Positions 4,365-53,399 of a stretch of DNA of 64,000 nt are shown here, one piece after another. Below the pieces are notes generated by a model. That model made no database searches, had not been told where the DNA came from, and saw nothing but the letters and a program-made list of their open reading frames with translations. The position numbers and the translations under genes are program-made. Source of the DNA: Haplodiscus bocki (taxonomy: Eukaryota); the NCBI GenBank assembly GCA_965655095.1, contig OZ296648.1, forward strand, positions 142,910,001 to 142,974,000, written 5' to 3'. Each line of letters starts with the position of its first letter. Position 1 is the first letter of the stretch.

Positions 4365-4630
4365 GAATTACGCCGCTATTTTTGGTATGGTGGCGTAAAC
4401 GCCACTAATACCGCTAAATTTTCAGCAAAATACCGACAACTCCCAGATACTAACAAAGATTGCCGTTAGCGCCCTTAAGGTTCCGGTTGAGTGCCGTCAA
4501 TGCCGCTGTTTTTATGGTTAAACGCCGCGAACGCCGTTATTTTTCCAGTTTTTAGTGGCTTCTGTGGCTGATTTTGACCACCGTTACCGCCCTTTTACCG
4601 GAAAAATCTCAACCAATATTTTAACCCGCG
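4365..4630. repeat. (A/G)CCG(C/T)-rich low-complexity repeat family, also at ~16250-16330, 58040-58200 and 58610-58730
   Basis: Recurrent ACGCCGCT/TACCGCC/GCCGTTA motifs at all four sites. Probably remnants of a non-autonomous DNA transposon. Confidence 0.5.
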
Positions 4631-4739
4631 TTGAACAGTCTTAGTTACGTAATCATTGTCCCACTCTAACATAGCCAAAATGTTTAGCAAGACGAAATTA
4701 ACTAAATGAACGTTAGAGATTCAGATCAACTTAAACAAC

Positions 4740-10661: not shown

Positions 10662-12134
10662 TGTATACTGATCCGTATCATATACGGATCACTTTAATGA
10701 CTGATCCAGATTGGGACAGAACCATTACAGAACAAACGAATAGTCACAAAGTTTTTCCAAACACGAAGTGCTAGTAATAAACTTCTATAAATTATTCAGA
10801 TTAAATCTACCTTTTTGACGGATAAAAATGATTAACTGGAATGAGTGCCATGCTAGTCGAAAATAGTGATGTTTAATAATTGAGCTAAATTAGCAGCGTG
10901 ACTTAATACAGCGTGAAAGACTGCAAGAAGGAATATTTAGTCCGTGTGTGCTCTATCGCTACTAGTCTGGTGACGTCACAAATATTCCAAATACTCAACT
11001 ACGCCGCGGTGTTGTACTGAATACGGAGTGACTCCGTATTCACTCCTAATTCGCCTAATATGAACACTGCTTGAATGACTTTGGCTGACGCTACTACAAG
11101 CTTCGAAAATTCTCTGGAGATTACTAGTTGTGCTACTAGTTTCTCCTCCTCCATGACAATCAAATACTGCCGCACAAATGAAATACTGTAAATGAGATGT
11201 CATAATCACTTTTTACTAATAATAAAATATGAAATTCTTTTTTAATACTAAAGCCATACATTTTTTATTTTTTATTTTTATTCCTCCTGAATAAGGAAAT
11301 CTTTAACTTTTCCCAGTTATGGAATATTTATTATTTCGCTTGTAAATAAAAGACGGTGCGGGATTGAAATTCTTGATGTCCATCCCAGACGGATTAGGTC
11401 CGTCCTCTTTCTCTGGAAAGATAGAAGAGACGCGTCCTATGGGGAAAGAGATGGTGGAAAGGTTGATTATTTCCCACCAGAGTCGAATTTCCGCTTTAAC
11501 TTTTAATAATGTAAGTATTTTTCCCTGTTTGTACCTTGCCTTGGCGTGTGAACAATTATGTTTCCCGCCAAGGAAAAGGTATAAATAAGATAAATGAAAG
11601 TACAGCGGACCACATTATCTGTACTAATGCTGTAATGCTGGCGTATTTCTTGAAAATTTGACTCTCGAATTTTTCCAATTATTTGAAAATATGAATTGTT
11701 AATTCAGTCTTAAAACACTGCTAATTACTTTTCCTTTCTTCAAAAATGGCAACTCTGAGAAAAAAAGAAAGTTAGCAGCCATCAACAGGGATAATCATGA
11801 CGATCATCCTAGGAGTAACCAGGCTAGAAACACAAATTCTCCTGGAATCCACGAAGATTTTATTACTCATGTGTCAGACGAAAATGAGGGCAGAGTGACA
11901 AAGAAACTGTCCCAGGAGTTCAGTGAGACGTAAAGTTGCACTTTGGGTGCCTTATCACAACTAGATGAATTTCTTTTAAACTCACAAGCCTGGGCTCACT
12001 CCGGACCCGTTCCGGAGACATCTCGGAATTTAAGTAGCGAAAACCAGGGAGCGAATGAGGACCGCTCCCAGAATGGTGGGGAGTCTCTTTAAGCCAATCT
12101 TGGCATGATTTAAGCCCAGAAGATACCTCTTACA
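10662..12134 (+). mobile_element. Solo LTR (copy 1) of the Gypsy family at 27.8-41.5 kb
   Basis: TGTA...TACA termini. Collinear with 40048-41531: CTGATCC..ATTGGGAC, GGTGACGTCACAA (10969), CCCGCCAAGGAAA..GGTATAAATA (TATA 11580), then a decayed MATLR..KRKLAA ORF from 11746. No matching TSD seen. Confidence 0.85.
11746..12134 (+). pseudogene. Decayed LTR-encoded ORF (putative Gag N-terminus)
   Basis: MATLR.KRKLAAINRDN...EGRVTKKLSQEFSET*SCTLGALSQLDEFLLN, homologous to ORF 41126. Confidence 0.8.
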
Positions 12135-27770: not shown

Positions 27771-27774
27771 TTCC

Positions 27775-28900
27775 AAAAGAAGGCGCGCTCCACAAGTCAA
27801 CCACAATTTCGCAGTGAGAATACTCATGAGACAATTGAAGCAGACCAGGTTTTGTTGGCCTTTCAACAATTGGCGACGAACAGTAATTCAGCCAAATTCA
27901 ACAAAGAACATCAGTAGAATCTCGCAATTGCCTAAATCCCTCACAACAACAATGGCCACTTTTGATGTGAAATCAGAAAAATTCGGACTGTTTGAAGATC
28001 TATTGCAAACAAGTTTGGAAATCCCCAATCAGCTGACAGAAAAAGATAAAATAAACTACTTCCACTCTCTCATGCAAGGTGACGCACTGCAAACCTTCAA
28101 AAACATCGCCAGCCCCAACACAGAGAATTTGGGAGAAACCCTGACTGTGTTCCGTAGAAAGTACGTAAAACCTCAGTCAGTGGCTACGGCAAAACACAAA
28201 TTTCAACAACTGGTCTTCTTTCCCGCAAACCAGAAGTTAATTGATTTTCTCGATGAACTCCAGAAATTGGCAGAAGACGCATTCGGAGTTGCCGCTCAAG
28301 CGATCATCGAGCAATTCATCCATGCCAAAATGCCTGGTCACCTGAAGAAATCAATTAACCAGGCACATTTGGAAATTGGCACATATGAACAGATTGTGTC
28401 GCATCTTGAAAGAGAGTTGGAACTAAATGGTTTGGAAGCCCGAGGTGAAATGCCAATAAACACTGTGACGCAACAAGCCCCTCAGCAAAACTCCGAAAAG
28501 CCCAAAGCAACGCGCCACCATTGCACAAAACCAGGACAATAGCAAAATCAGTGCCCACAACTCAAACGAGAAAAAGTCCAAACCCGAAATAATCTTAATA
28601 GTGCCAACAATAACAATGGTAGTGCCCAAACAAACTCCAACCCCAATAATAAAGTTTCAAACAATACCAAAGCAAACAATACAATTAATCAAGGAGACAG
28701 AAGCTCTAGACCTGTCTTCCCACCCTGTGAGACCTGTGGTAGCACTAACCACTCCACAGAGAAAAATTACCTTGGAGCAAACGCAGCAAACAGACCGCTT
28801 CCCCGGAATAGAATACCGGAAGGACAAAACCAAGTCCAACAGAGAAATGTTCAAAGCAACTCAGATGGGAATGTCCAAGCTGCAGCCCAAACTTTAAACT
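27775..28900 (+). pseudogene. gag: gag (5'-truncated) with two decayed zinc knuckles
   Basis: MATFDVKSEKFGLFEDL...KINYFHSLMQGDAL capsid-like region; RHHCTKPGQ*QNQC (~28512) and CETCGSTNHSTEK (~28726) knuckles. Confidence 0.85.
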
Positions 28901-29369
28901 AGCCACGCCACGTCTTCACTCCGGAGCCGCATGTGACAGACCGGAGACAAATGAAATATCAAAACTCCCAACAATTCCCGAGGTTGTCTGGCAGCAACCT
29001 ACGGAAACAGTTACAGAAAACCATAACTTACATAATAATAATAATAACTCGACTTTAAAGACAAATGTCGCAAACCAAACGTCGCCACTCGAGAGAACCC
29101 AACCACAGAACCACGTAGCCGCCACGGAACAACCTTCACGAAATCAAACAGGGAATGAGCCAGTATCGTTCCTTAACTGCTCCTTAATTCCTCTACCGAT
29201 ATCCAAAATACAGAACAACGTGTAGTGACTACCCCTAACGGAGATACAAAAAGTCCACCTCTCACCACTGCAACCCCACTAATTTAGGAAGGGTTGGTAA
29301 GAGACGAACAGACAATCTAGGTATATCTCCCATTAACCTCTACAGTAGTCCTGAAACGAAAGCAAGAAA

Positions 29370-32300
29370 TGCTCTATGTGCCTCTGGATTTTGAGAATAT
29401 TCTTACGGTAGATGCTCTGGTGGATTCAGTAGCCTTTGTCAATGCACTTGCCCAGGATGACTTGGACACAATAAAACAGAAATCCCGAATAATATTCTCA
29501 AAATAGACGACACTCCCGATTTTCAAATACAAGTAGCCAAAGGCTAATTAGAAAAACCATTATCAACAGCCACACTAAAATTTGAAATTGGAGATAATAT
29601 CTTCGTTGAACACTTCGTCCTAATGAAGAAAAATGACAGGGCCAATCTTTGGGTTGCATTTTATGGGGAACAACAGTGTAGTCGTTGACACGACACACGG
29701 CCTCATACATTTTCCACACTTGACAATGCAAATTAAAACAGCCTCAAGTGAGACCACAACAAAACCACAGCCAGTCATCACTGACGATGCCCTGGCCCTT
29801 GTCGACGACAAGAACAATCATAGCCTTTGTTGACCATCCGTCAAAATGGAACAAAAGGGGGACTGTGACACCGTTGGAGAAGTTTACGGAAAAAGCAAGT
29901 TTGCTGATTTCTCATTCAATGTCAACAATATTGACAAAAGAAAAGCAGTCAGAGTAACCAATGCAACGGAATCACCATATCTAGTCAAAAAGCACACACA
30001 CATTGCAGAGTTCTCCGTGGTTACTCCGGAACAATCCAAGCACATCAAACCAGTAGATATGGCAATCCCTAGTATGATTCCACAAGGTGATCCCGACCTG
30101 ACTGCCTACCTAAAAAACTTCTCAGAACGAATAACCCCGAGCAACAACACAACACATTCTGGTTCCCAACACCTGAAAATTCTGGAAAGCCTGAGGATCA
30201 CACCCCAATACAGACAAGAGACCTCAAGGAATTGAATGAACTCAAGGACAAGGAAAAACTCAATCCACAAGAGAGCACAGAATCTCGAAACAAAATTTCT
30301 CAAACAATTTGATTGGACTGACACACTCTTTACAGAAACGGCGAAACAAGCAATTGAAGATATTCTGGTTGATTATCATGACATCTTCGCCAGACAGAGA
30401 TAGGATATTGGGATGAATACGGAGTTCAAGGTAAAATTAACTCCCAAAGACGACAAAGCTGTATATAGCCAAAGTCTACCAATGCCGAGCCACCTGAAAG
30501 AAAACCTAATTGTCGAATTAGCCCTAATGCACAAATATGGAATCATCACAGTACTGCCTTTCTCCAAGTACGCGAGCCCCATATTCGTACAAAGGAAGCC
30601 CAACGGAAAATTACGTTTCATTGTGGATCTCCGGAAAATCAACAGTCTGATTGCGGATGACTACACTAACAACAATCATCCAGTTATCACTCTATCGGCG
30701 CAGCACAACATTTGACTGGGAAGTCCCTGTTCTGCAAACTAGATTGCTCCCAAGCTTATCACTGTTTGCAGATGGCGGACCAACGGTCAGTGGAAATGCT
30801 TACATTCAATTTTGCTAGCGGAACTTTTGCCTATAAAAGACTTGCACAAGGTCTTAGCAGATCTGTGTCTGCTTTTTCAAGTTTGATGCGTGAGTACTTG
30901 GACCCAGTCGTCCAAGCTGACCAATGTGCTCAATACGTAGACGACATTGGAATTGCAGCCATTAATGCTACGGACCTTACCCGGAACATTCGGGCAGTCT
31001 TCAAGTGCATTTGCCAAGCAGGATTGAAGCTGAAAAAAGAAAAATGCCATTTTGGAGTCAGACAAGTTGGATTCTTAGGAGGAACATTTTCACCAGAAAG
31101 ACTATCACCGCCAGCTCGGAAAATTCAAAATTTCCTTGACAAACTTAGATTCCCCAAATCAAAAAAGGCATTACAGCGATATCTGTGTTTCGTTAACTAT
31201 TACAGAAAATATAATCCCATACTGGCTGAAAGACCTAATCCGTTCTACAGATTGCTTAAAACGGAAGTGCCAATCATTATTACGTCGGAAATGAAAGAAA
31301 CATTGCCTTCACAGATTCAGTCAATAAGGCTTTCAGTGACGCTTGCCAATTAGCACTTAAATAACCCATTACAGGAAAGCAGCTTGTCTTTATGACGGAA
31401 GCCAGCTTCAGAAGTGATGGATATGCCTCCATGATCGAAGACAATCCCGATCAGAAAATACAATCAAAGCGGAAAACGTACGCCCCAGCAGCGTTTGGCT
31501 CAAAAATTTTCTCCCCTGCACAACTCCAGATGTCCACATACTCAAAGGAGTTTTTGGCAGAATACATGGCATTTCTAGAGTTTGCACACATTCTGTGGGA
31601 AGCAACAAAGCCAACATTTCTCCTAACAGACAACAAGTCAGTCACACGTTTTTTCCAAACAAAGCCACTTCTGCCAGAACTCTGGAATGCATGTGATTAT
31701 GTGTAGCAGCATAACTTCGAATTAGCACACATTGCTGGCCCAGTCAACACTGCAGTTGACTTTCTCTTCAGACTTGAACTTAAAGTCACGGAGAAGATAC
31801 GTCTCAAAATCCGGGAAGATATACAAACAACACCTATCGAGGTGACCACCTCTTCCTCGGATGTCGCTGATGAAGAACAATTATTCTTCAAGCAAGCAGA
31901 CAACAACGTTGACTCAGAAGACCAAACCCTTGAAGGAAAAGAGCAACCTAAACAAAATGCGAAGCAATGGGCATTGAATGAAGAATCACTCGTCTTGCAA
32001 ACGAGTGTGAATGAATTCACAAAGACCGACGGAAACACTACGTCGTATTCCATGAACGGAATTAAAGCAAATGCGAGAATACGAGGAGAGCAAGACGTCG
32101 ATCTTGTGCTGAAGAACATGGAATTGAAAATCTTAGGCCGACTTTAAGATGAAGTATTAATAATGACAGACTCACGATACCAAAATTACAAAGCAAATGA
32201 AGACCATATCTTTCTTAAAGATGGTCTATTGTTCAGGAAATATTTTGGAGAAACAGGTAGCATCAAATACTACCAAACTCTCATCCCAAAGTAATTAGTT

Positions 32301-33754
32301 AATGAAGTTCTGAGCAGCCTACATGGAGAATTCGGAAAACACTCCAAAACAACAACTGCTTACAGGGAAAAATATTTTTTTCCAAAAATGGCGCAATTAA
32401 TCAAGGAGTGGGTCATGTCATGTGAGCAATGCATTAGAGAATCACGAACTAACCGTAGCTTTTTCCGCCCTCCCCTGCAAAACTCAAATGAGCACATTAC
32501 TGCGCCCGAAGATGCCATGCAAATTGATTTGGTTCCGGAATTACTGCCATCTGGTGGCTATGAAAACATTGTGACAGCCATGGATGAGGTTCATTTGCAT
32601 ACCCGACATCAAATCAACACGCTAAAACAATTGCTGAAGTCTTATTTAACATAATGACAAATCACGCGTACATACCAACGACGCTCATCTCAGATAAAAG
32701 TACAGCCTTTATGTCTCATGTAATTAAAGAAGTGGCCGACGTCCTTGGTATTACTCCAAAGCACGCCACTACAAAGCACGTTCAAACAGTTGGGTTACTT
32801 CAGCGATCTCACGCGTCAATCAAGCAAGCATTGAAGATAAAGACAGGCGAGCGGAGATCACTGTGGCACAAGTACGTCAACATTACAATACTTCCTCAAT
32901 TACAATACTTCTTACCACACAAATATTGGTCGTGAGCCAAGTTGAGCCTTTCACGACCGTATTCTTTACAACAGTTTGGACTTAAAATTGGGAATTCGCC
33001 CACAGCAACAGCCCATTCCTACTTCGCAATTATCCAAGATGCTTTTGATCAAACAGAGATGATCCATCAAGATATTCGCAAGAATTCCATCCAAGCATAC
33101 ATTAAATACAAGGCCCATTATGACAAAAAAGCCAACGCTTCAAAACTTAAAGAAACAGATTTTGTATACATCTTGCAACCGAAAGCGGATCATCAAGGCA
33201 GCAAAATTCCATTCACAGAATTTCGATGGATTGGCCCATATATTATCGAAAATGTATTACCCAACAATAATTATTTGGTACGCAAAATTGGCACCAACAA
33301 GACGCAAGTACTTCATCGGATGAGAATGCGTCAGTTCACACCCCGCCAACCACCAGCTGACATAAAAGTCAAGCCTCCAGAATATAAATCCGATCCCGAA
33401 GTGAGTATTCATCAGGACGATTTATATGGAAGGGTGTGGGAGTATGACTTTGAGCAGCCAATTTTCGACGCGGAGAACGATAAAGCGGCACCACCCAATC
33501 TTGAAGAGATTCCACTACAGTCTGATTATTCAACAGAGGAAATGAGGAACACACCAGGAAATCCATATGTCTGTTCCCCGGAGATTTTACCATGCACAGA
33601 CGAGGTCACTGACGTAACAGATACGTGTCCACATATGGAACCTGATGTGGAGACAAGCTCGGAACAACAGGAAAATAGTCCAACTAACCCCCGCAGTTCC
33701 AAATACAACTTGCGTCATAACCCGAAGCCTAACTGCAATGACGACTACCGATAG
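29370..33754 (+). pseudogene. pol: pol: protease, reverse transcriptase, RNase H, integrase (multiple stops and frameshifts)
   Basis: ALVDS(V)A protease; SPIFVQRKPNGKLRFIVDLRKIN, LDCSQAYH, LAQGL and YVDDI (RT); TEAS...EFLA...TDNKS (RNase H); H..H..CEQC, MQIDL, ISDK and WIGPY (integrase). Confidence 0.95.
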
Positions 33755-34785
33755 TAGTTTGTCCGCTCAACAAGTGTGTTCCACGTAACGCGCACCTAGC
33801 CGTTCCAAATTCAAGGAGCGCGCTACGTGGCACATACGTGCCAGTCCAAATTTCTCACACATTCTATTCTGGATATTCCCTGGTGACTAACTCACTTGCT
33901 ACTCAGTCTGGAATACTTCAAAACACGGCCACTGTGTCTCTACAGCTTACATCAAATATAAAGCTTACTACGACAAAAAATCCCAACGCTTCAAATCTCA
34001 AAGAAGCCGATTATGTATACGTATTACAGCTGAAAGCGGATCATCAAGGGCAAAAATTTCCCTTTGCAGAATTTCGCTGAATTGGCCCGTACAATATTCA
34101 AAAGATGTTACCTAACAACAATTATCTGGTAAGCAAAACTGGCACCAACAAGACGCAAGTGCTTCACTGTATGCGGATGCGTCAGTTCACACCCCGCCAA
34201 CCACCAGCTGACACACAAATCAAGCCACAAGAAGATAAACCCGATCCGGAGGTGATCCTTAAACACGGTGATTTGTATGCCAGAGCGTGGGAGTATGATT
34301 AAGAGCAGCCAATTTTTGAAGCCAAAAAGAATAATGCAATGCCACCCAACTCAAACGAAATTGCAGTGCAGTCTGATTTTTCAACGCAGGAAATAAGGAA
34401 CACACCAGGAACCACACACGCGTGTTCTTCAGAAATTTTTCCTCAAACGGACGAAGTCAGTGACGTAACAGATACGTATCCACACATGGAACCCGATGTG
34501 GAGGAAAAATCGAAACAACCAAAAAGCAGTCCGACCAACCACGCAGTTCCAAATACAACTTGCGTCAAAACCCGAAACCTAATTGCAATGACGACTACAG
34601 ATATTAGCTTGTCCGCTGAACTAGTGTGTTCCACGGAACGCGCACGTAAACGTTCCAGAAATTCAAGGAACGCACTACGTGGCACATACGTGGCAGTTCA
34701 AATATTCCGCATATTCTATTCCGGATATTCCCTGGGGACTAACTCAATTACTCTTCAGTCTGGATTACTTCAAAACACGGCCACT
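33092..34785 (+). repeat. Diverged tandem duplication (~850 bp) of the integrase C-terminus and 3' flank
   Basis: AYIKYKA.YDKK..ASxLKE..WIGPY...CNDDYR* plus CAAAACACGGCCACT occurs twice (33092-33932 and 33943-34785). Confidence 0.92.
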
Positions 34786-35000
34786 AATACTAAATTCATC
34801 AATATTCTCGTTTTCTCTACACAGGCCGCATTCACTTTATCCATTATTCCTTTTCTCTTTTTTTCTCTGAACTTTTGAACTAACGAAAACAATATATACA
34901 ATGAACATAATGAAGACAAAACAATTTCATGCAGTAGAGAGGCAGAATGGCAATAAGCAACGAGTGCAGCAGTTATCAATGACCGGACAGACAATAGCAG

Positions 35001-38000
35001 TCATGGCATTCCTCGTTGAAAGGCTGGCGTAGCTTTTCTATCTCGCCCACTTTTCCGTGTTTTTCCTTGGGGACGTTCAGATGCCAAGGCAGAAGCAAAA
35101 CTGGGATCATCGACAACAGTGCGTTTTCGGGAATTGAAAGAATGACTTGAAACCTCAAACTGGCGCGGCAACTTAACTGGAATCCGAACCACTCTCTTTT
35201 TTCCCTTTCCTGGAGAAGAAGGATGACGACTATGTCCAGCAATCTCACGGGACGGAGCAGCACCGGGCACATAATCAACTTGCCCCCCTTCCACGACTAT
35301 TGAAAGGCGGACACCATATCGAGAAGACGATAGATGGCGGCCGCACAGCACTCAGAGCATACCATTGTTCGCTGGTACCCTTAACCGCACGACGACGATC
35401 AAGTGCCTTCTAGAAGCATGTCCTCAGATCTGCAATGATCTGGGCCGATGACCCGCTTTCCACCTCTGACCACGAGGCACAAAGGGAACTGCTAGTGATG
35501 CTGTCAGAAATTGCAGTAGCCTCAGAAAGCATTGCGACAGCCGTCTCTGAGAAGAAGCTGCGCTGCGTGAGAACAGGATCTCTCACAAAATCCTGAACAC
35601 ACAACAGGACACCGCGCACTTTTTCCTCCCTGATAACCACCCGATCCAAGTTTACCGTAAACCTCTATCCAGATGTTACTGGTCCACGAATGGCAAGTGC
35701 TGTTAATTGAAAGACCAAAAACAAACATGATTGAGCTAGAAGTTGCAACAAGATTGAAACCGCACTTTTGGAGACAATACATAGTTTATACAAATGGCGC
35801 CGCACACGAAAGCCAACCTGTGAAGAGCAGAAAGTCAGGACGTTCCCTACGTCAGGGCGGCTCTTTGTTGAAGTCCGCTCCAGCTGCCTCTGCGCCTGCA
35901 CGAACGACTGGTACTCTGACTTGCAGGCTTCCATCTCTGCCCCCTCACCCATATTTTCTCCAACAGTCCAACAAGCAACATGTGAAAGAGTTGCATAGGA
36001 GCATGATCGTCTCCACCAACCAGAATGGGGGGCCAAAACAACTGAACACTTGGCCTATTGCGGACCTTGCGGCAACAGTCGACAGCACACAGTTAACGAA
36101 GTCCTCCAGGAACTTCCTGCAATCTCGCCCGAACTCTCTCTTTAGGTGGGAACTTCCCTCTTTTTCAAGAGCTGATGACACCCGAGTACCAGCAAGGAAA
36201 CGATCTTCTTCGATGGCAGCAAATTTTGAGTGATTAGGAGCAATGTACTCCTCCCACTGCTCAACTGACGGCAAGACGCTGCTGTTTGATTTCCTGAAGA
36301 AGACAATAAACGAAATGGGCGACTTCACCGAAGGCGTAGTACCCATAATCGGCAGCGGACTGAGAATGTACAAAAATGTTGGCAACTGAAACAGAACATA
36401 CGTCACAGACATGGTAATGACGTCAAACCCACCGGCAATGTGCCAGTGCCACGATTCTCCAAATGCAACGAAAGAAAAAATGTGGAACCAACAGGGAGCC
36501 ACACTAAAGCGTGCCTAGAAATTTTGAACAGATCATCCGGAACGCCACGTTACCGCTGACTCGAAAAATGAAAAGTGCCTATGTACTGACATATTTCAAG
36601 CAGAATGTGGAAGACACGGAACTTCAAACGAGCGAGTTGGTCCAGATAAAAGTAACCATCCATTCCCTTTTTCTGAACATCACAATTTCAATTTAAATGG
36701 GTACGACACAGTGGCAATAAAATCAAAGAGGGAGATCTTACCACAAAACAATTGCCGTCATCTTTCCGCCCAGCCTCCTTCAGGTACGAAACAATCAAAG
36801 TCCACGCTCCCACAATATTGGCCACGACGTCGACGAGCTCGGGCATCACAAGGCTGCTGCTGATGATGGCTTTCTTCAAAGCTGGTCGAGAAGCCATCCC
36901 GTCACGACTCTCCACCCCCTTCAGCTTGTTCACAATGAACTCAATCATAGAGTACGGGTCCAGAGTTCCGAAATCTCTTGACGCACTCTGTCACAAAGAA
37001 CGTTTGAAAAGGCGCAAGTCAAACAAGCGATACTCGATCAGTTTTTGCTAATATTCACTGCCCAAGAAGTTTACGTAAGCTTCCACAAGTGCATGTTGAC
37101 CGCCCTGCATTGACAACACACGATCATCTGAACCAATTGCGTCAAAAATGCGTCCCAACATAACCACCTCCTCAATTACATTGCTGCTGAGCCGATCAAG
37201 AATTGCCACACACAACCGACGAAACTGGTTGTTATCCCAGCATCGAATGAACACCCAGATGTGCTCGCCCTGCTCCGCAAACTCTATTCCGCAATAGCCA
37301 TGTGCCTTTGTTCAAGGAACACCTTGCTCAAAATGCGGGGGTACATGCCATTGAGGATGATTGACTGAAAGCAAAACAACAATGTACAACGGGGATGAGT
37401 ACGTACAATACGGCAGACGAAAAAAAAATATTGTCAGTTGTCTCAAATGTGTGAGGTACAATACGCGGCTAGCTCTGTTCCATGCGTTCCACACGGCCCA
37501 AAACGTCATCTAATCCTGTGAACAAAGAAGCAAATGATTAACACACGCCAAGGAACGTACATGGATGGTACGGCAACAAAACTTACTGCTCATTATTGGC
37601 TGCAGAATTTGTGCCCTCTCCTCGGCGCAGATCGACCCCCAGAAAGTCACAAGTTGATGCCCTGTTTCCTCAATTGGAGTCACTACAGGGTCGTTACTGA
37701 AATGATCTACAACAACAAAGACAAAAAGGAGGAGCAATCATGGAACGCCACAAAAATATCCCCATCTGAAGTGATACATACCATTGTCAAAAGCCTCTTC
37801 CAACAACTCTCGACTGCGTTCGTGGCTGCTCACTGGCAAAAGGCACTGGAGCAATACCAGCCAAGGGGACCAAGCGCCGTGTCAAAACAGCACGTCGTCG
37901 TCGAACCTGGCTTTGTGTCTCAGCTTCAGTCAGGATGTCATCACAATCAGACGAAATCATACCAGCTTCACTGATGCTTATAACATACAAAGAAGATTCA

Positions 38001-38732
38001 ACTGTCCCGAACATGGCCAAAACAATATGAGATATTGTTAAAAACTTGATGCACAACCCATGGGAGATCTTTTTTCAAGACTGGGTACGTCTTCATCACA
38101 AGATGTTGCACGTCCCACCTCAAACTCACTTCCGGAATCACCCGGAACATCAGCAAAAGCATCGTCAGGAAGAGCAGCAGGCTCCCTGGCAGAATCATAT
38201 ACTAAAACACAAAAGCCCCATGATGCCATCTTCATGTTTGGGCGCGCGCTGGTCACTAGCTGATGGAAAACATAGATGGCCTCTGTGTTATTCCTATATA
38301 AAAACTAACGAGAATGAAGAATGCAGACTCACACAATGGCAGTTCGGATGAACCGACATCACCCTCCAAAACAGTTTCTGAATGCAGATTCGCACGCATG
38401 AGAACATCATTGAAAATGAAACCCTCAGATTCTGCGCCCTCATCTCTTTGATCGCCGCCAACCACGTCCAAAAATGAATCCTCGGCGTCATCGTCTGCAC
38501 CAGACACAGGCTCAGTACCACAAATGGTATTGTTGCTGAACAGCTCTAAAGCTCTCCGAACGCACTCCTCTCCTTCTCTTTCTGCAACATCGAAACTGGG
38601 GACAAATGGGAGAGCAAGGGACAAACTCTTCTCTACTGCTCCTTCATCAATCTCCAATGCCCCTTCTTCATTAACCTCGTCCGCAAACGGGGATGTCCTC
38701 CTCACTTCTCCTTCTTCTTCGATCGAACTCAT
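35001..38732 (-). pseudogene. Antisense, intron-containing accessory gene(s) of unknown function inside the Gypsy element
   Basis: Chain of minus-strand ORFs from an acidic N-terminus (MSSIEEEGEV, 38732) to a basic C-terminus (KGKKRVVR...FQRGMP*, 35001). A GT-AG intron at 36741-36673 (GTAAGA...TTCAG) removes an in-frame stop. A second at 36432-36386 (GTGGGT...TTTCAG) joins frames. Confidence 0.7.
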
Positions 38733-39157
38733 TATTACGAATAATGAATGACCTGGATATTGAGCTATTACATGGTGGATTTACATATTTTTTCAAAAAC
38801 TCCTAAATATTTTATTAAAAATCTGATTAATTTGTCTGCCAGCAATTATGTCAGCAGGCTTTCTCAAAGACACCTTGAGGAACGATACTCAAGTGTTCCT
38901 TAAATTTAGAGACTCCATTTTTAAGATTTGTTTACATCTCATCAACTCGAACTTCACTTCCTACATCCTACCTTCACCGATGCAGAGCAGCGGCGCGGGA
39001 ACATCAAAGCAAATCCCGCTTCATGAAAGTGGATTATCATTACCCGCAACCCTGATCATTCTCTCATTTTTCACTTGTCCAATTCAGTTGCCCGATCAAG
39101 AAATTATCTAAATTTCTTCTTAAATTTAACCTTTCCTCTAATATTTCGATCGATTCG

Positions 39158-39854
39158 GTGGATTCTGATGTGTTCTTTGTGGAACAAATCTCCAATGAGC
39201 CCAGTCCACAACGATACAACTCCCCGAACATCCTTAACTCGACTGAACTATCGCAGAATCATACAGCAGGAACGCCCTCAGATTCCTCGATCGCATTCAC
39301 AGAACCCCAAATTTTGACCATCAATAACATCTCCAATGAGCCCACAATGCCATACGGATTTGGACGGCAGTTCCCAATCGTTCCACCGAGCTTGAATGAC
39401 CTGAACTTGCCGCCCAATCCATTCAACATCCTGGCAATAATGGTGGTGGTAAACCGTATAGAGGATGGAAAAAACGACAATTACAGCCCCCAGTCACCAG
39501 AGCCATCTGATCCATCGCCCATATCAACACCACCCATGAATGTCAGTACATTTAACAGTTGGGGAACACCGCACAGCACAACTGACGACAACCCCCTTCG
39601 ATTCGGAGGACGAGCCACGACGTGTATACTGGACTTCTTCCCTAGATGAAACCTTTTATTCGGAAGGCGAACCCAGACAAATATACCTATTGTCCAGTCT
39701 ATCACCGCCGTCACCCCCTCGCAAGATGAAGAGGAAGTTAGAGATAGGAATGTCCTTTCCAAAAAGAGGGGGAGTGTCGCAACACGTCTGCGAAGCCTGC
39801 GTTCAGACGATCCCCTCAACAAAGGACGTCCCAGGTCCATCAAACAAGGATTAG
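39158..39854 (+). pseudogene. Sense accessory ORF: S/P-rich, probably disordered protein with NLS-like and CxxC motifs; one frameshift near 39595
   Basis: MDSDVFFVEQISNEPSP...TTDDN joins FDSEDEPRR...PPSPPRKMKRKLE...HVCEACVQ...NKD*. The first codon in this copy is GTG. Confidence 0.65.
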
Positions 39855-39951
39855 AACTTTGAAGACATTCAAACTTACTTATGAACTATTAAACTTATGA
39901 ATTCATCCACTCAATTATTTATCGCATCATGTAATCAGTAATTTATATTTA

Positions 39952-40073
39952 GGATACGTAGTAGGTACGTATCCACCTACTATTCATACATGTACTTCAT
40001 GTAGACGATACGTAGTAGTTACGTATAGTCCCATAATGTTTTTTCCATGTAGAAAGCACGTATCCGATACGTG
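39952..40073. other. Cluster of four short perfect hairpins at the 3' LTR boundary
   Basis: GGATACGTA-gtagg-TACGTATCC (39952-39974); TACATG-tactt-CATGTA (39987-40003); ATACGTA-gtagt-TACGTAT (40008-40026); CACGTATC-c-GATACGTG (40057-40073). Confidence 0.9.
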
Positions 40074-40328
40074 TAATCCTGGTGAACTGATCCTTATTGG
40101 GACGGAATAGATACGGAGCAAACGAATATTCACTGTATTTTTATATTATTTTCAGGTGCTCTTTATATAATTAAGGTAACTAATTAATATATAAATCCAC
40201 CTTTAATTGTGCAGTAAGTTATTTATATTGACGGTTTTAACAAGTTTTCAATATTTCGGCTATTAGAACAGAGCTTGACTTTAAAAGTGGATATCTGTTC
40301 CGTATGTGTTCCGTCGTAAATAATCTGG

Positions 40329-40336
40329 TGACGTCA
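40329..40336. promoter_or_regulatory. CRE-like palindrome TGACGTCA in U3
   Basis: Perfect in copies 1 (10971) and 2; TCACGTCA in copy 3. Confidence 0.55.
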
Positions 40337-40933
40337 CAAGAATTTCAGCCAATCCGCTGTGCTTCTACGCTGTTTCACTTTGGACGGACACGGAACGTCT
40401 ACGTAGCTAGCAGAATCATTCTCCTCAGTAGCACTGCGGAAAGCAGTGCTACAAGCGGCTACGTAGTCGCCACGGAACGCTCCGGCCAAAGTGAGGCGTG
40501 AGCTTGTAGAAACGTGGAAAGAGCTAGCAAAAAGCCTATTTTTGTTCCCTACAGTGGTTTAATTGATGCAGCGTTTAAACATGGACCTTTTTAGCATCAT
40601 AAACTTTACTTTTTCATACATTAAACTGTTTTTTCCACTGTACTTTAGTATTTTCCCTGTATGGAAATTTATTTGATCTTTTGTTTATGTTTTTTTTATT
40701 GTGTCGGCGCGGGAATAACCACTTTGATGTCCATTTCCGACGGATCGGACCCGTACTTTTTCCGTCGAAATATGGAAAAGACGCGGTCCGTGAAGGAAGA
40801 AATGGGCGGAAGGGTGTTTATTTCCCGCCAGAGTCGGCATCTTTTCCTTTATAAATATTATGATTTTAGTACTTTTCCCTATTTGTGCCTTTTTTTTGGC
40901 GTGTAAACAATTATGTTTCCCGCCAAGGAAAGG

Positions 40934-40941
40934 TATAAATA
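40934..40941 (+). promoter_or_regulatory. LTR TATA box
   Basis: TATAAATA conserved in all three LTRs (11580, 40934, 47190), 165-190 nt upstream of the LTR ORF start. Confidence 0.75.
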
Positions 40942-41125
40942 GGAGAAATTAAAGTACTATTATTATTATATAAATTGTAGCTTTTCGGTGTTGTACCATT
41001 TATAAAATGACTTGACTAATTGTATTCATCGAAACTCTTTTCCCTCATAATGAGAGGAGATCAACACTATTAATCAAAGATAAAGATCATAATTCAGTCT
41101 TCATCGCTGACAAAACTTTTCCCTG

Positions 41126-41531
41126 ATGGCAACGTTAAGAAATAAGAGGAAACTAGCAGCAATTTTGAGAGAAACACATGAAGGCACTAGAAGCAGTAGA
41201 GCGCAGAACGTACTTGACCGTGAATTAACTCAAGATTACATCTCCCAGGTCTCTGAGGAGATCGAAGGCAGAGTAACTAAGAAACTCTCAAAAGAATTTA
41301 GCAGAACGGAGTCACGTATCTTGGGTGCCTTGTCAAAGCTTGACGAGTTTCTTCTGAACCCACAAGTTCGAACTTGTTCCGCAGCTGTTCCGGGAACATC
41401 CAGGAACAATAATTCAGAAAACCGGGAGACCACTGGGGATCGTTCCTCAGGCGATCCCTACCCCGAAGTGGGGTACTTTTCTCACCACTCTGGTCATCTT
41501 AACAGCCCAGAGGCAGAAATCTACCCTCACA
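41126..41531 (+). CDS. LTR-encoded ORF, putative Gag N-terminus (about 135 codons, open through the LTR end)
   Basis: MATLRNKRKLAAI...YISQVSEEIEGRVTKKLSKEFSRTESRILGALSKLDEFLLNPQVR...YPH. No stop before the terminal CA. Homologous in all three LTRs. Confidence 0.75.
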
Positions 41532-46285: not shown

Positions 46286-47784
46286 ATATAATTAACTTAC
46301 AGATCACCCCCGTGCACTGATTCAGATTGGGACGGAACCGTTACCAAAAATAAAACGAATACTCTTTTAGTAAATCTTTCTGATTTTAAGATCTGCTCTT
46401 TTCAAAATTGTTTGTTTTCTTTTAGCATAAATCCACCTTTTAAAAAGAGCTAACGTGGTGTATTATACTTAAATTGACGCAGTTAATGAGTTTGATCAAT
46501 AGCATCTACAGCTAGACGGAAATAACTGTAAGAATGAAAATTTGTTCCGTAAGTGTTCCATCGCCACTAATCTGGTCACGTCACACTAGAAATCAATAAA
46601 ACTGCTGTGCTACTACGCTGTGTTAAAATGACCAAATAGGATAGAGTTCGTATTCTTTCTTTTCACTCATTCAGCATCACTGCTACTAGCAGTGCTGCAA
46701 GTTAAAACGGAGCTGATCTAGAACGGGCCAGTTGAAACGAGGAACTTACTAGTACGAATGAGGAACAGACTAGGTACTCTACTAGTTTCAGCCTAGTTTG
46801 TACCTCAAATTTTGCGCAGTAAGTTGGCAAATAATTTTTCATACTCAAACATGAAATACTGAACTTTTTATTGTAATACTTTTATTTTCACTCATGGAAA
46901 ATTTAATACTTTCTAATTTAAAAAAATCTTATGATGTATTTTTTTTATTAATAGTCATTGGGTCGGCATTGGAATGAACATTTTGATGTCTTTTTTTGAC
47001 GATTTAAGCCCGCATATTTTTTGTCGGACGATGGAAAAGACGCGGCCTATGAGAAGGAAAAAAGATGGAAAGGTGTATGCTTCCTGTCGGAAATGACATT
47101 TTCCTTTTTTGGATCAAAAACAAGTACTGTTCCCTACTTTGTTTCCTGACTTCGTGTGTAAGCAATTGTGTTACGCGCCAAGGAAAAGTTATAAATAGGA
47201 GAAACTAAAAACTACTATTCGGGATCAAGAATTTTAACTTTATTATCAGTTGACTGTTCAGATTGCGAACAGTTGTTCATTTTAAAAGAATCACAATTTT
47301 GTTTTGATGTCGAGTTGAAATAAAAATAACAAAAATTTCAGTATTTACCACTGCTGGGCATTTTCCCTTCAAAAGATAGCAACATTGAGAAACAAGAGAA
47401 TGTTAGCAGCTATTGCTGGAGAAACCTAAGAGTAACATCCCAGAAACGCCAAAAAACGAAACATATCCAATCCTAGAATCAAGGAATACTACATACCCCA
47501 GGTCTCTGAGGAAATAGAAGGCATGGTCACTAAAAAACTGTCCCAGAAGTTCAATAGGCCAGAGTCCCGCATTTCGGCCGGTCTTTCTAACCTAGACGAA
47601 TTTCTGCTGCACCCGCAGGTACGGAAACAATACGGAACCATTCCGGGAACATCCCGGAACAACGAAATGAAAAACCAGGAATCAAACGAGGATCGTTCCC
47701 AGAAAGCTCCTCGTCCTGAAGTGGGGTCCTCCAACTATCTGTCCCATCATTCAGTCGATTCAGACCCACACCAGGCTCCTCACA
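46286..47784 (+). mobile_element. Solo LTR (copy 3), 5' end eroded
   Basis: Same landmarks as the other copies; TATA at 47190; ORF start mutated to ATA (47376); YIPQVSEEIEGMVTKKLSQKF...LDEFLLHPQVR; ends CCTCACA. Confidence 0.85.
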
Positions 47785-49924: not shown

Positions 49925-50071
49925 GTTATTAATACATCTATTGGTTTTGAGATTTTCCACTGCAATGCTTCTTTTTAATGCAATGCGTATCGCAACCCAA
50001 GTGGTTATGAAGTTTATAGTGTGACTATTGGAATTTCACCGAAACGGTAAGAGAGTTGATCAACAAACATA

Positions 50072-52829
50072 CTCTTTAAAACTGGCGCGTGCAAAATTGC
50101 CTGCAAACGCAGGTAACTTTACCTGTAATTCGCAGTTAAAAAGGTCCCACACGCAGTTTACCTGCGTTACATGCAGTTTACCTGTAAAACCAGGTAAATT
50201 TACCTGCGTCGAGGCGGCAAGCACCTCGCGCAGAATACACGCGAATTGCCTGCAGGAGCATGTACCTGAATACCACAGGCATTTTACAGGTAGCTTTACA
50301 TGCGCAACTCATGCAAATTTGCCCGCGACTAGCATGCAAAATTGCCTGCTTTTGCAGGCAAAAATACATGCACTTACAGGCAAAAACACTAGAATCGCAG
50401 GTAAAAATACCCGCCAAACGCAAGCAAAATTAACTGCAACCGCAAGAAAAAATACCGGCACATTCGCAGGCAAAAAAACCTGCAATTCCACGCAGAATTA
50501 CCTGCAATTGCAGGCAATCTGCTACGACACCGCGGGTAAATTCACCTGCAAATTGCAGATAAGTTAGCCTGCATCATGCTGGTGAAGTTAGCTGCAACTT
50601 GCGTGCTTTATTTAGTGCTATAGCGTGTATTCTGCGTGGGGTGCTTGCCGCGTAGAAGCAGGTATAATTACCTGTTTTTACAGGTAAACTGCATGTGGGG
50701 CCTTTTTACCTGCGAACTGCAGGTACAGTTACCTGCGTTCGGAGATAATGCAATCTTGTCGAAAATCTATCGTTACTTGCGGCAAAACTAGAAGAGAAGA
50801 CGCACAAACAAAGGACGTAAAGTTGCAATGCATTGCTAAAGCTCATCAATCGATATTACAAAATCCTCTGGCTAAAAGTTACAGGCACATTTAAAGAACA
50901 GACGAGAAAACCCCTCAGACTAAACATCAAAAAAACTTGATGTCGTCAGAAAAGAATAACAATTGAGCAATTCTTGCATATTTCAGTCCATACAGATACA
51001 GATATGAAGTCAACGAAAGAAGCCATTTTCCAACAAAAAACTCCAAAATCAATCCATTCGTGGTCAAATCACTTTTGAAATCCAGTTGCAAACGTTTCCG
51101 TAAAAGTGCAATACAAGAAAACTTCAATCTAGAACCTGAAACACAGCCGAAAAAAATTACTCCAAGAACCGAGGCAGCTATATTCATTAATACAAAGAGA
51201 TGAAAGAGAACTTGTATCCCATTTCCTTCCTTTATATCTGAACAAATTTTGAGCACTAGGTCCAAGACGTGAATGCAACTCAAAATGTTCAAGTTCTTTC
51301 TAGTTTCCGCCAACCAAAAAACATTTCCGGCAACATCGGGGCCACCAACGAGCAGTTGCAGTAAAAGGCTCGATTATTATTTTTGAAAAAAAAACTATTG
51401 CAGTAAACGGAGTAGAACATCAACAGACAGTTAACATAAAAAAATGAGAAAACGGTTCATATGGTTTTCAAAAGTATTAATTGTTATTTCACCAATAATT
51501 GTGACAAAAGGCACACTGGAAGACACCCTGACATAGGGAGTAAAGTTGAATTGCATTGTTAAAGCTCATCAGTCGATATTAGAAATTTCTATAGCTGAGG
51601 AGAATGGGCACATTTATAGAAGAGACCAGAATACCCCTCAAACTAATCATCGAAAAGATTTGATGTCGTCAAAAGAAAAGCACACTTGAGCAATTTATGC
51701 AAATTTCAATCCATGCAGATATGAAGTCAACAAAAAAGCCATATTCCAACGAAAAACCCCAAAATCAATCCATTCATGGTTAAATCACTTTTGGAGTCCA
51801 ATTGCAAACGTTTCCGTAAAAGTGCAATACGAGAAAACTTCTACCTAAAACCTGAAACAGAGATGAAAAAAACTCATTCGAACAAACGATGCAACTTTTT
51901 CCACCAACACAGCGGAAATGAAAGGAAACTGTATTCAATTTCCTTCATTTACCTTTTAACAACTTTTGAGCACCAGGTCCCAGAGATGTATGTATCTCGA
52001 AAAAGTCAAGTTTTTTCTAGTTTTTGCAGGCCAGTAACACATTTCCCTCTTAGGCAGGGCCACCATTGACAGGTTATTTAATTGTGTCCGCTAACATGTA
52101 TCAGAACAAAAACATTACAGTAAATAGAGTGGAGCAACAGAAGCCTCAGAAATTTGAAAATTGGAAAACGGACTAATTGGTTTCCAGAAGTAATCAAAGA
52201 GTTGTATCATCACTACTCGCGAGAAAACTAGATCATAAGACGCCTAATTATAGGAAAAAAAGTTGCTTCGGAGTGATAAGTCTACTAGTTTTGCATCGGA
52301 TAAAAGTTGTCATTGTGATTTTACTTCACCATTTTTAGTTTCAAATTGCTTTAAGTTACATTTTTATGTAGTCCTATAAGATCCTTTTTTACGTTGTTTC
52401 CTCTTTAGATTTAAGTGACAACAGCCAGTTCCCGATCATTTTGATGGCAGTGAAGACTTTTTCAGCGAGCTGTTTTTTTGGATAACGGTTTGAAGAGCCA
52501 GCAAGGAACACTTCAACGTTTTTGGAACAAAATCAAATTTGAATGGTTCACCATTGACTTCAAAGGCAACAAATGGGTACTTTGGTCAAGGTGTTTGGAA
52601 CTGGATAAAAGGAAACGTCCCGAGGTTTGAAAAAATCCGCCCGGAGGCGAACAATAAAAACTTCATGTGAATTACCTGCGGGCGCAGGTAAATTTCCGCC
52701 AGTTACGCGCGGAAACCGCAGGCAACCGTTACCTGCGGAGATTTTGCCTGCATCCGCAGGTATTTTTACCTGCGGATCAGTTTACCTGTGGCCTTCGCAG
52801 GTAATTTTGCACGCGCCAGTTTTACAGTG
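50072..52829. mobile_element. CACTG-type (CMC/EnSpm-like) non-autonomous element ends with TACCTGC subterminal repeats
   Basis: Left end TA|CTCTTTAAAACTGGCGCGTGCAAAATTGCCTGC; right end GCAGGTAATTTTGCACGCGCCAGTTTTACAGTG|TA (33-bp TIR, 3 mismatches). Dense ACCTGC/GCAGGT repeats at 50072-50740 and 52670-52829. Confidence 0.75.
50765..52270. repeat. Diverged tandem duplication (~720 bp period, two copies plus the start of a third)
   Basis: AAAGTTG..TGCATTG.TAAAGCTCATCA at ~50819 and ~51542; TTGCAAACGTTTCCGTAAAAGTGCAATAC at ~51086 and ~51802. Confidence 0.9.
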
Positions 52830-53399
52830 TAGTAAAGTGCTCGAAGCCACTTGACACTGAATTCAGAAACAAATAAAAAATCGCCTCCATACGTAAAAGG
52901 AAACTTTTGCAAGGAAACAATCAATAAACTAATGAGCTGCATCAAAAGATATCGATGCTCTTCTCAATTTTCGAACAGTTCCAGTTAAACTGACCTTGAA
53001 GCGTCTTAGGCCTCAATCTTGAACCAACAAAGTTGAACCATTGAAAAGCAAATTTTTGTAATTTTGCGTGGATAGTTTCTTATTTTCAAAATAAATAGTG
53101 CACGATAAGAATACAGTGAAAACAAATGTGGTTGAGAAACTATTCCTGATGAGGAGAACGAACACGAAACATAAACATCTAATTAAAGCGAAAATTCGAG
53201 ACTTTTCCTCAAACAATTTATCTAGGACTATACTTTCTGCTATACAAACTTCCAGCCTCGTTCGATTTTTATACGATGATCGAAGAATTCTGAGTAAACT
53301 TCGTCCAAAAAATTGACAACTGTAGCAATTCAGGAGGCTAATTAACTCTTAAAAGAGTTACAATAACAATAGGCACAGTCGCACTGCGATATTTTCCGT

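Follow-up and report, generated by a model that had tools for sequence, protein, structure and literature searches.

An abundant Gypsy retrotransposon family of Haplodiscus bocki carries, between pol and the 3' LTR, a two-gene cassette whose spliced antisense gene encodes what is very probably a descendant of a hAT DNA transposase. We tentatively propose, at somewhat short of an even chance, that a class I retrotransposon domesticated a hAT gene, introns included, as a sequence-specific trans-activator or anti-silencer, that ancient and interchangeable versions of it recombine onto one pol, and that this may explain the flooding of the genome. The window analyzed here is a 64,000-nucleotide stretch (assembly GCA_965655095.1, contig OZ296648.1, 142,910,001 to 142,974,000, forward strand), and coordinates are positions within it.

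The Gypsy family and its cassette

A full copy of the element is ~15.4 kb long, and the cassette is a constant component. Pol of a natural intact copy runs PR-RT-RH-IN by Pfam positions, as it does in the window copy, and the best PDB match of the intact RT/RH is Ty3-G Gag-Pol (E 1.7e-39). In 13 full-length copies, LTR pairs are 95.8-99.7% identical and end in TG...CA, a TGG-start PBS-like site and a polypurine tract are present, and the 5-bp target duplication is perfect in 10 copies and has one mismatch in the remaining 3. Together these features identify a Ty3/Gypsy LTR retrotransposon. A first-look genome search with one exon returned 4,653 candidates, a count of candidates and not of copies.

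The first-pass annotation had taken the region as an accessory module, and it is real: exon 5 of the antisense gene occurs in all 20 copies chosen by RT, exons 5, 6, 8 and 9 occur together in 18 of them, and the sense ORF in 19. Conversely, the integrase end and LTR adjoin the cassette at 25/25 loci chosen by cassette. Absence from other copies and terminal inverted repeats of its own, which that annotation had named as counter-indications, were not found (20/20 RT-picked copies carry the cassette, and its ends show no inverted match >10 bp in 5 copies). A sister family has an antisense-gene homologue of ~26% identity in 13/13 copies (reversed controls, 0 matches); in a distant Gypsy clade, 0/20 copies have one.

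The window copy is decayed. Its gag-pol (27774-34785, + strand; gag, protease, RT, RNase H and integrase by Pfam matches) is 5'-truncated and 83-85% identical to young full-length copies. The integrase 3' end is tandemly duplicated over 850 bp (33094-34785, +); the halves are 81% identical to each other, and match the closest fetched copy at 91% (first) and 81% (second), likely a recombination scar. A polypurine tract (39761-39774, +) precedes the TG...CA 3' LTR (39775-41531, +), whose first 350 bp hold a cluster of ACGT-core repeats and which contains the 5' end of gag (ATG at 41126). The cassette itself is 73-77% identical to young copies.

The antisense gene (35001-38732, - strand, 3.7 kb) divides into nine exons when aligned with a natural young copy. 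Intact copies encode ~1,190 aa and have eight likely introns, which bears out the earlier description of a spliced minus-strand gene with GT-AG introns. All on the minus strand, exon 1 (38333-38732; dN/dS 0.31) supplies the start codon and an acidic N-terminus, and is followed by exon 2 (38046-38201), exon 3 (37782-37977) and the 120-nt exon 4 (37587-37706), all three placed by alignment to the young copy. Exon 5 survives as a remnant (37418-37515), in which 98 of 659 nt align; a deletion (gap at 37407/37429 against young copies) has removed ~560-600 nt, the BED-type finger included. Exon 6 (36742-37364; dN/dS 0.12) encodes a predicted RNase H-like core that lacks catalytic aspartates, exon 7 (36591-36672, 82 nt) joins the frames of exons 6 and 8, and exon 8 (35785-36385; dN/dS 0.08) is predicted helical and carries a frameshift here. 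Exon 9 (35001-35715; dN/dS 0.19) lies where a hAT C-terminal/dimerisation domain would be expected and continues into a basic Ser/Pro tail. Three splice sites are broken in the window copy, the acceptors of exons 3 and 9 and the donor of exon 8.

Elsewhere the gene structure is preserved. GT-AG introns sit at identical positions in five subfamily types, and exon 7 is kept with AG/GT edges in 8/8 aligned copies of five types. The last intron, 61-79 nt long, has GT in 26/27 copies and AG in 27/27, and its length is not a multiple of three in 15 of the 27. The sister family shares the position of the intron after the finger exon (5/13 copies read cleanly). On a young copy, four unlabelled contig sets, which look like DNA and do not bear on expression, gave no joint that skips an intron among 15 inspected, with 1,156 more beyond these. 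The dN/dS check proposed for the spliced ORF revealed purifying selection, with exon values of 0.08-0.31 versus 1.0-2.5 in shifted frames; synonymous sites are close to saturation and the protein is conserved. Chance ORFs were rejected as an account of the cassette.

Four versions of the antisense gene exist, far apart in sequence (55-67% DNA identity) and reshuffled on a pol/RT backbone that is 90-99% identical. Sense-ORF versions assort independently of antisense-gene versions, and the integrase end is 85-98% identical across copies regardless of cassette type.

The sense ORF (39131-39854, +; dN/dS 0.16, indicating selection) is Ser/Pro-rich and predicted to be disordered, with a basic patch, a terminal C-x2-C and no Pfam match. 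Its reported size of ~230 aa stands (the young copy has 229 aa, counted from Met), but the ORF extends into the LTR: it spans the polypurine tract and stops 80 nt inside. In the window copy it has lost its start codon and acquired a frameshift. The earlier judgement that neither gene is env stands; a scan of five exons and the sense ORF, six stretches in all, found no R-x-K/R-R site. The accompanying claim of no transmembrane anchor fits the sense ORF, whose hydropathy reaches at most 0.5, but not entirely the antisense gene, in which one 19-mer of exon 6 is hydrophobic (Kyte-Doolittle 2.2). Env was rejected, as the sense ORF lacks membrane-level hydropathy and R-x-K/R-R and the antisense gene is wrongly oriented.

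The two genes are head to head, as first described, across a conserved spacer of ~400 bp (38733-39130). Compared between cassette types, it reaches 83-95% identity where the exons have medians of 50-66%; one 9-mer occurs in 18/18 copies and a CRE-like palindrome in 16/18. The fixed words are CRE-like and E2F-like. The spacer would likely serve as a bidirectional promoter.

Descent of the antisense protein

No family had been recognized at first sight, partly because the window copy has lost the ~600 bp encoding the BED-type finger. We read the protein as a probable hAT transposase that has lost catalysis. In intact copies a helix and a predicted RNase H-like core come after the finger, and then a predicted helical C-terminal region. 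The C-x2-C and His positions of the finger are kept in 18/18 copies, and the Cys/His pattern recurs in the sister family, whose fingers match the Spin-doc finger (E 0.0055). Against Pfam, the finger gives zf-C2H2_12 at E 0.0055 and zf-BED at E 0.28, neither reaching cut-off.

Embedding neighbors (Atlas) point the same way. Two separate parts of the protein fall near FAM200/GTF2IRD2/Dimer_Tnp_hAT/zf-BED clusters at scores of 0.88-0.94, although scores near 0.9 also arise for 4-10 per 100 shuffled proteins, and we count both queries as a single source. Neighbors of the finger part are zf-BED/zf-C2H2_12 clusters, and those of exons 8-9 are FAM200C/GTF2IRD2-like; for the C-terminal region the score is 0.90 with a cluster in which 34% of members carry PF05699.

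Structure prediction followed by Foldseek, also suggested as a check, was informative for the core. AlphaFold2 gives segment 210-310 an RNase H topology at pLDDT ~70 within a weak overall model (mean pLDDT 47.6), and with this predicted core all of Foldseek ranks 1-10 are Hermes transposase (best E 5.8e-4). The C-terminal model (pLDDT 37) has no fold match.

Catalysis appears to have been lost. On the predicted model and known hAT motifs, from which the catalytic strands were assigned, Asp is absent from predicted strands 1 and 4 in 22/22 copies, the third catalytic position is variable (18 copies), and predicted strand 1 has two invariant Glu. With no DDE triad, CxxH or terminal inverted repeats found, the cassette does not appear to be an active hAT transposon. 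The predicted protein resembles Hermes, Buster/SPIN hATs and ZBED, FAM200 and GTF2IRD2 in its N-terminal BED-type finger and predicted RNase H-like core, and perhaps in a helical C-terminal part, and differs from hAT transposases in having no catalytic aspartates, CxxH or TIRs and in its long acidic N-terminus and basic tail.

Possible roles and competing explanations

We give about an even chance to the antisense protein being a domesticated hAT transposase that acts as a nuclear DNA-binding regulator, binding the repeats of its own LTR and keeping copies transcribed. A hAT gene would have been captured as DNA in reverse orientation, its introns surviving because reversed introns go unseen in plus-strand genomic RNA. 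Both genes would be transcribed from the spacer, and the antisense protein would bind ACGT-core clusters, including the short repeats in the LTR. With about even confidence, it may activate transcription or counter silencing through its acidic N-terminus, possibly aided by the disordered sense protein. There are precedents for parts of this: the BED domain of Hermes recognizes short subterminal repeats (PMC10368747), and TnpA and plant transposases act as activators of their own copies, with DDE lost in domesticated ones (10.64898/2026.08.24.746577).

Candidate binding sites occur on both sides of the cassette, at the LTR start and just past the pol stop, where a cluster of ACGT-core short repeats (34607-34856) has 6 overlapping matches in the window copy and 6-16 across 13 family copies, against a background of 0.45 per 250 bp with palindromes counted twice. 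The sister family has no ACGT cluster after pol. Alternatively, it could be host factors that bind the ACGT words, which counts against the regulator model. The ~650 aa past the finger are under strong selection, beyond what a simple activator would need.

That whole transposase-like body under strong selection would suit an oligomeric, DNA-bridging role, and it is conceivable, if unlikely, that the finger binds chromosomal DNA and steers the integrase complex to tolerated sites. Other Gypsy elements are tethered by chromodomains or host factors, and several fetched copies lie next to or inside other LTRs and repeats. However, the integrase end stays similar across cassette types, so the two partners show no sign of having co-evolved, and 13 flank pairs, too few for a test, reveal no obvious target motif.

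Persistence of four such divergent versions on a nearly identical RT backbone, with sense-ORF versions assorting independently, might instead record an arms race, in which the protein serves as a decoy or antagonist of a host defense or chromatin protein through protein contact and not by binding element DNA. Many host contacts are predicted for accessory TE proteins (PMC13547354). We find this decoy reading quite unlikely, as dN/dS is far under 1 in every exon tested and few parts are as well conserved as the finger.

Profile tests outside the finger all failed, as would be expected had the element captured some other host or transposon gene that encodes a C2H2-like finger together with a generic RNase H-like fold. 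Pfam found nothing significant on exons and alignments, HMMs against host hAT ORFs did no better than reversed controls, and hhalign to hAT gave no significant match outside the finger, which reached E 0.0012. PDB profile searches with the antisense protein and a viral fold library (at E 0.001) gave no matches. In a search of 1.84 billion representatives, the best 150 of 1,447 matches all belong to this family (39-94% to fetched loci), which would hide any remote relatives. Long homologues were also sought, with none found, which is weak evidence; a cluster look-up gave no names, and no donor turned up in the host hAT loci retrieved with four Pfam families. VIA does not single out Hermes for the predicted core: Hermes scores Z 6.0 (rmsd 4.1, 116 aligned), level with or under kinases and other RNase H-like folds, and the IS256-family transposase ISCth4 scores Z 6.8, while the longest alignments (103-116 residues) go to Hermes. 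We nevertheless give a non-hAT source little credence, since the finger, helix plus RNase H core and helical region stand in hAT order, the Foldseek top ten are all Hermes, and both Atlas queries lead to hAT-derived families.

Nested insertions occur often and the gene has the look of a transposase descendant, yet an ordinary hAT insertion hitch-hiking with no function for the retrotransposon is scarcely credible for a cassette fixed in 20/20 and 13/13 copies of two families, with no terminal inverted repeat >10 bp (5 copies), synonymous sites near saturation under a conserved protein, and splice sites kept. Independent insertion is refuted by the selection signal, barring an autonomous source element that feeds all copies.

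Relation to known systems

A close parallel is with plant Retand/Tat Gypsy elements (e.g., maize Grande), in which, according to PMC11963269, the region from pol to the 3' LTR spans 2.9-6.6 kb and a family-wide antisense gene, TRP28 (PF04195), encodes a predicted DNA-binding protein of unknown function. That text describes no similarity of TRP28 outside Retand/Tat elements, restricts it to flowering plants, and never uses the word 'intron' in its main text. The H. bocki element shares the long region (~5 kb) and an antisense gene across the family. Its gene differs from TRP28 in having eight likely introns, a ~1,190-aa product, a likely hAT origin and a divergent sense ORF as partner, and PF04195 has no match in it at E up to 10.

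The proposed sequence-specific activation of an element's own copies by an element-borne protein would be analogous to Spm TnpA, VANDAL VANC and the AtMu1 transposase; the DNA-binding domain of TnpA itself derives from a transposase (10.64898/2026.08.24.746577). Those three, unlike the present case, are encoded by DNA transposons and target elements of their own class. The antisense gene also differs from single-copy host-domesticated genes in being kept by a retrotransposon at thousands of candidate places. HBZ of HTLV-1, a small bZIP protein, is expressed from the 3' LTR. Both are antisense accessory genes near the 3' LTR, but here the protein is large and transposase-like and its gene is likely driven by the internal spacer; HBZ is mentioned as a retroviral antisense gene in PMC11963269.

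Our literature search, with most subscription papers and Repbase outside it, found no LTR element described as carrying a hAT-derived gene. Transposases tamed by hosts are well known, among them ZBED and FAM200. Here, another transposon appears to have tamed a transposase and spread it to thousands of candidate sites, and the reversed orientation suggests how an intron-rich gene can travel in a retroelement. The antisense accessory gene of an LTR element would thereby gain a traceable origin; that of TRP28 is unknown (PMC11963269). The four diverged versions on one backbone constitute a natural experiment on the role of an accessory gene.

The cassette within its Gypsy family

The window copy (27774–41531) is a decayed element, truncated at its 5' end, in the 1.5-Gb assembly G000, whose segment C1:142910001–142974000 is the window; the pol order and a best PDB match to Ty3 identify it as Gypsy. 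Young copies are mostly 15.3–15.7 kb long (one is 14.8 kb), with LTRs of 1.75–1.85 kb that are 95.8–99.7% identical within one element, and of 13 full-length copies 10 have a perfect 5-bp target duplication and the other 3 one with a single mismatch. The gag frame starts within the LTR and continues across the primer-binding site. Its first ~135 codons lie inside the LTR (41126–41531, and all family LTRs), so every solo LTR carries a 5' piece of gag; this start is presumably comparable to acoel-worm repeats. The integrase end of the window copy contains an 850-bp duplication with 81% identical halves, which looks like a crossover scar.

The ~5 kb cassette between integrase and 3' LTR is a real, fixed and selected component of this abundant lineage. 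The first-pass annotation had assigned it to the retrotransposon, naming absence from other copies and TIRs of its own as signs of independent insertion, and its assignment holds. We sampled 20 copies in roughly even steps through 150 listed RT matches, all 87–91% identical to the window RT (13,620 first-look candidates). Exon 5 of the antisense gene occurs in all 20, the sense ORF in 19, and exons 5, 6, 8 and 9 together in 18; the other two are a copy with an internal deletion and a copy that extends beyond the fetched stretch. Integrase end and LTR adjoin the cassette at 25 of 25 loci selected through a cassette exon, and no TIRs were found around it in five copies.

A sister family (13 LTR pairs), with pol 63–72% identical in DNA where alignable, encodes an antisense homologue in 13 of 13 copies. 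Identity is ~26% in the finger exon, and profiles match the core and C-terminus, with no matches in reversed controls. The two sister copies inspected for it also have a Ser/Pro-rich sense ORF that extends into the LTR. No part of the cassette occurs in 20 copies of a distant Gypsy clade (L169–L188). That clade has different sense extras after pol (e.g. L173:1790–4228 and 4573–5673, L178:4473–5435): first an ~800-aa ORF with no clear match in Pfam, followed in many copies by one of 320–460 aa (two of four tested have a DnaJ domain scoring above the Pfam cut-off) and sometimes by a third.

The same lineage has left two older LTR relics in the window (10700–12070 and 46525–47780), 65–79% identical to a young LTR, and three family copies lie in tandem at G000:C11:28656079–28684138, spaced 13.8 kb apart with apparently shared LTRs. 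The window also holds an element with 41-bp terminal inverted repeats, ~22-bp subrepeat arrays and an internal 720-bp duplication (50070–52831; 69–72% alike to DNA in locus L096), an apparently frame-broken TRAF/meprin MATH domain match (138–884; E 2e-7) and a 98-bp direct repeat at 1928 and 2252.

Selection on the antisense gene and its predicted splicing

Conservation suggests that the antisense gene (minus strand, 35001–38732) is spliced, as the first reading of its GT-AG introns had proposed. When natural copies are aligned, the gene resolves into nine exons separated by eight introns; copy L011 has ~1,187 codons, and its splice phases chain correctly except for one frameshift in exon 8. 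The last intron (61–79 nt) starts with GT in 26 of 27 copies and ends with AG in 27 of 27, and in 15 of them its length cannot be divided by three; all 8 aligned copies have an 82-nt exon that joins the reading frames of exons 6 and 8. Introns are fewer in the sister family, but the intron following the finger exon is common to both; it read cleanly in 5 of 13 copies, the search pattern having mis-picked or missed most others. Because the spliceosome does not see antisense-gene introns within plus-strand genomic RNA, these can persist through reverse transcription; on this known biology, the gene would have been captured as DNA, in reverse. A ~70-nt non-coding block in intron 1 (38202–38332) has been kept in all five cassette types, while third positions of the neighbouring exons have diverged; it is possibly a cis element or RNA structure.

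Every antisense exon measured is under purifying selection. Pairwise Nei-Gojobori dN/dS among copies chosen for open frames (pairs with pS > 0.25; those saturated at synonymous sites dropped) is 0.31 for exon 1 (26/26 pairs usable), 0.10 for exon 5 (11/41), 0.12 for exon 6 (20/44), 0.08 for exon 8 (12/43) and 0.19 for exon 9 (20/43), these five of the nine exons being covered. The sense ORF gives 0.16 (70/70) and the integrase tail 0.24 (11/11), against 1.0–2.5 in shifted-frame controls. Sister-family medians are 0.17–0.18, with one pair at 1.08.

Identity of the two proteins

The antisense protein probably represents a hAT transposase that has lost its catalytic activity. Most of exon 5 is missing from the window copy; the C-x2-C...H-x5-H finger that this exon encodes in intact copies is kept in 18 of 18. 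Atlas embedding neighbours of exon 5 include zf-BED, Spin-doc finger, FAM200B and GTF2IRD2 clusters (0.89–0.94; the top three are unnamed), and those of exons 8–9 are FAM200C and GTF2IRD2-like (0.88–0.90). AlphaFold2 predicts for exons 5–6 a helix, three strands, helix, strand and helix at pLDDT ~70 (mean 47.6), and with this model Foldseek ranks 1–10 are all Hermes (best E 5.8e-4). The longest VIA structure alignments are also to Hermes, but at Z ~6, level with unrelated RNase H-like folds. Pfam, HMM, hhalign and PDB profile searches gave no hAT support outside the finger, and C-terminal fold prediction was unsuccessful, which we counted against hAT origin. We consider that origin highly probable and a non-hAT one improbable. 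Aspartate is absent from the predicted catalytic strands in 22 of 22 copies, the CxxH motif is absent and the third catalytic position varies; two glutamates are invariant in strand 1, so residual metal binding is still conceivable. Separately, a host hAT family (L091:1339–3623) has an open frame of 624 aa and 24-bp TIRs; many of its copies score equally, so it was probably active recently.

The first-pass annotation recognised no family for either protein, which now probably stands for the sense protein alone. This protein (plus strand, 39131–39854) is low in complexity, and no homologue was identified in searches outside the large protein collections. Copy alignment shows an invariant N-x-L-N-L-P-P at ~39420–39450, which may resemble Sin3-binding motifs, followed by a short hydrophobic helix.

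Shuffled versions and proposed function

Among 19 copies, RT identity is 90–99% irrespective of cassette type, whereas exon 6 separates at 55–67% into four groups: C, D, E, and one made up of types A and B. Which sense-ORF version a copy carries (65–84% identity between groups) does not depend on its antisense version: between copies L115 and L104, for instance, identity is 99% for RT and 95% for the sense ORF but 62% for exon 6. The version in the window copy is A-like and diverged (78%). It was RT similarity that led to types C and E, so copies with distant RT would have escaped notice. Balancing selection is one reading of these diverged versions; repeated pol sweeps with recombination are another.

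The spacer (38733–39130) is 83–99% identical across all types, with one 9-mer in 18 of 18 copies and one palindrome in 16 of 18, presumably resembling E2F and CRE sites. ACGT-core words cluster right after the pol stop (6–16 per 250 bp; 13 copies) and within 350 bp of the LTR start (12–19; 12 copies), compared with 0.45 per 250 bp in the rest of the window. They flank the cassette on both sides, like subterminal repeats around a hAT gene. The sister family has no such cluster after pol; its LTR was partly covered.

In the parts of the sources available to us, Retand elements carry antisense TRP28 ORFs of unknown origin (PMC11963269), Hermes BED binds subterminal repeats (PMC10368747), transposases act as self-activators and lose DDE on domestication (10.64898/2026.08.24.746577), accessory TE proteins are treated (PMC13547354), and an acoel genome is LTR-rich, with no mention of extra ORFs encountered (PMC9911081). 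Antisense accessory genes and transposase-derived regulators are already known separately; we found no literature report of the two joined with introns in one LTR element.

In integrated copies the spacer would most likely drive both genes, and the spliced antisense mRNA would yield a nuclear protein running from an acidic N-terminus through a BED finger and a dead transposase body to a basic tail. Such a protein might serve as an integration tether, which we think unlikely, or as a decoy at the protein level, which seems slightly less likely again; that the gene, with its purifying selection, is a hitch-hiker is scarcely credible. We infer that the antisense protein is a DNA-binding regulator of its element, and give about even chances that it binds the element's repeats, where it would promote or protect transcription in trans.
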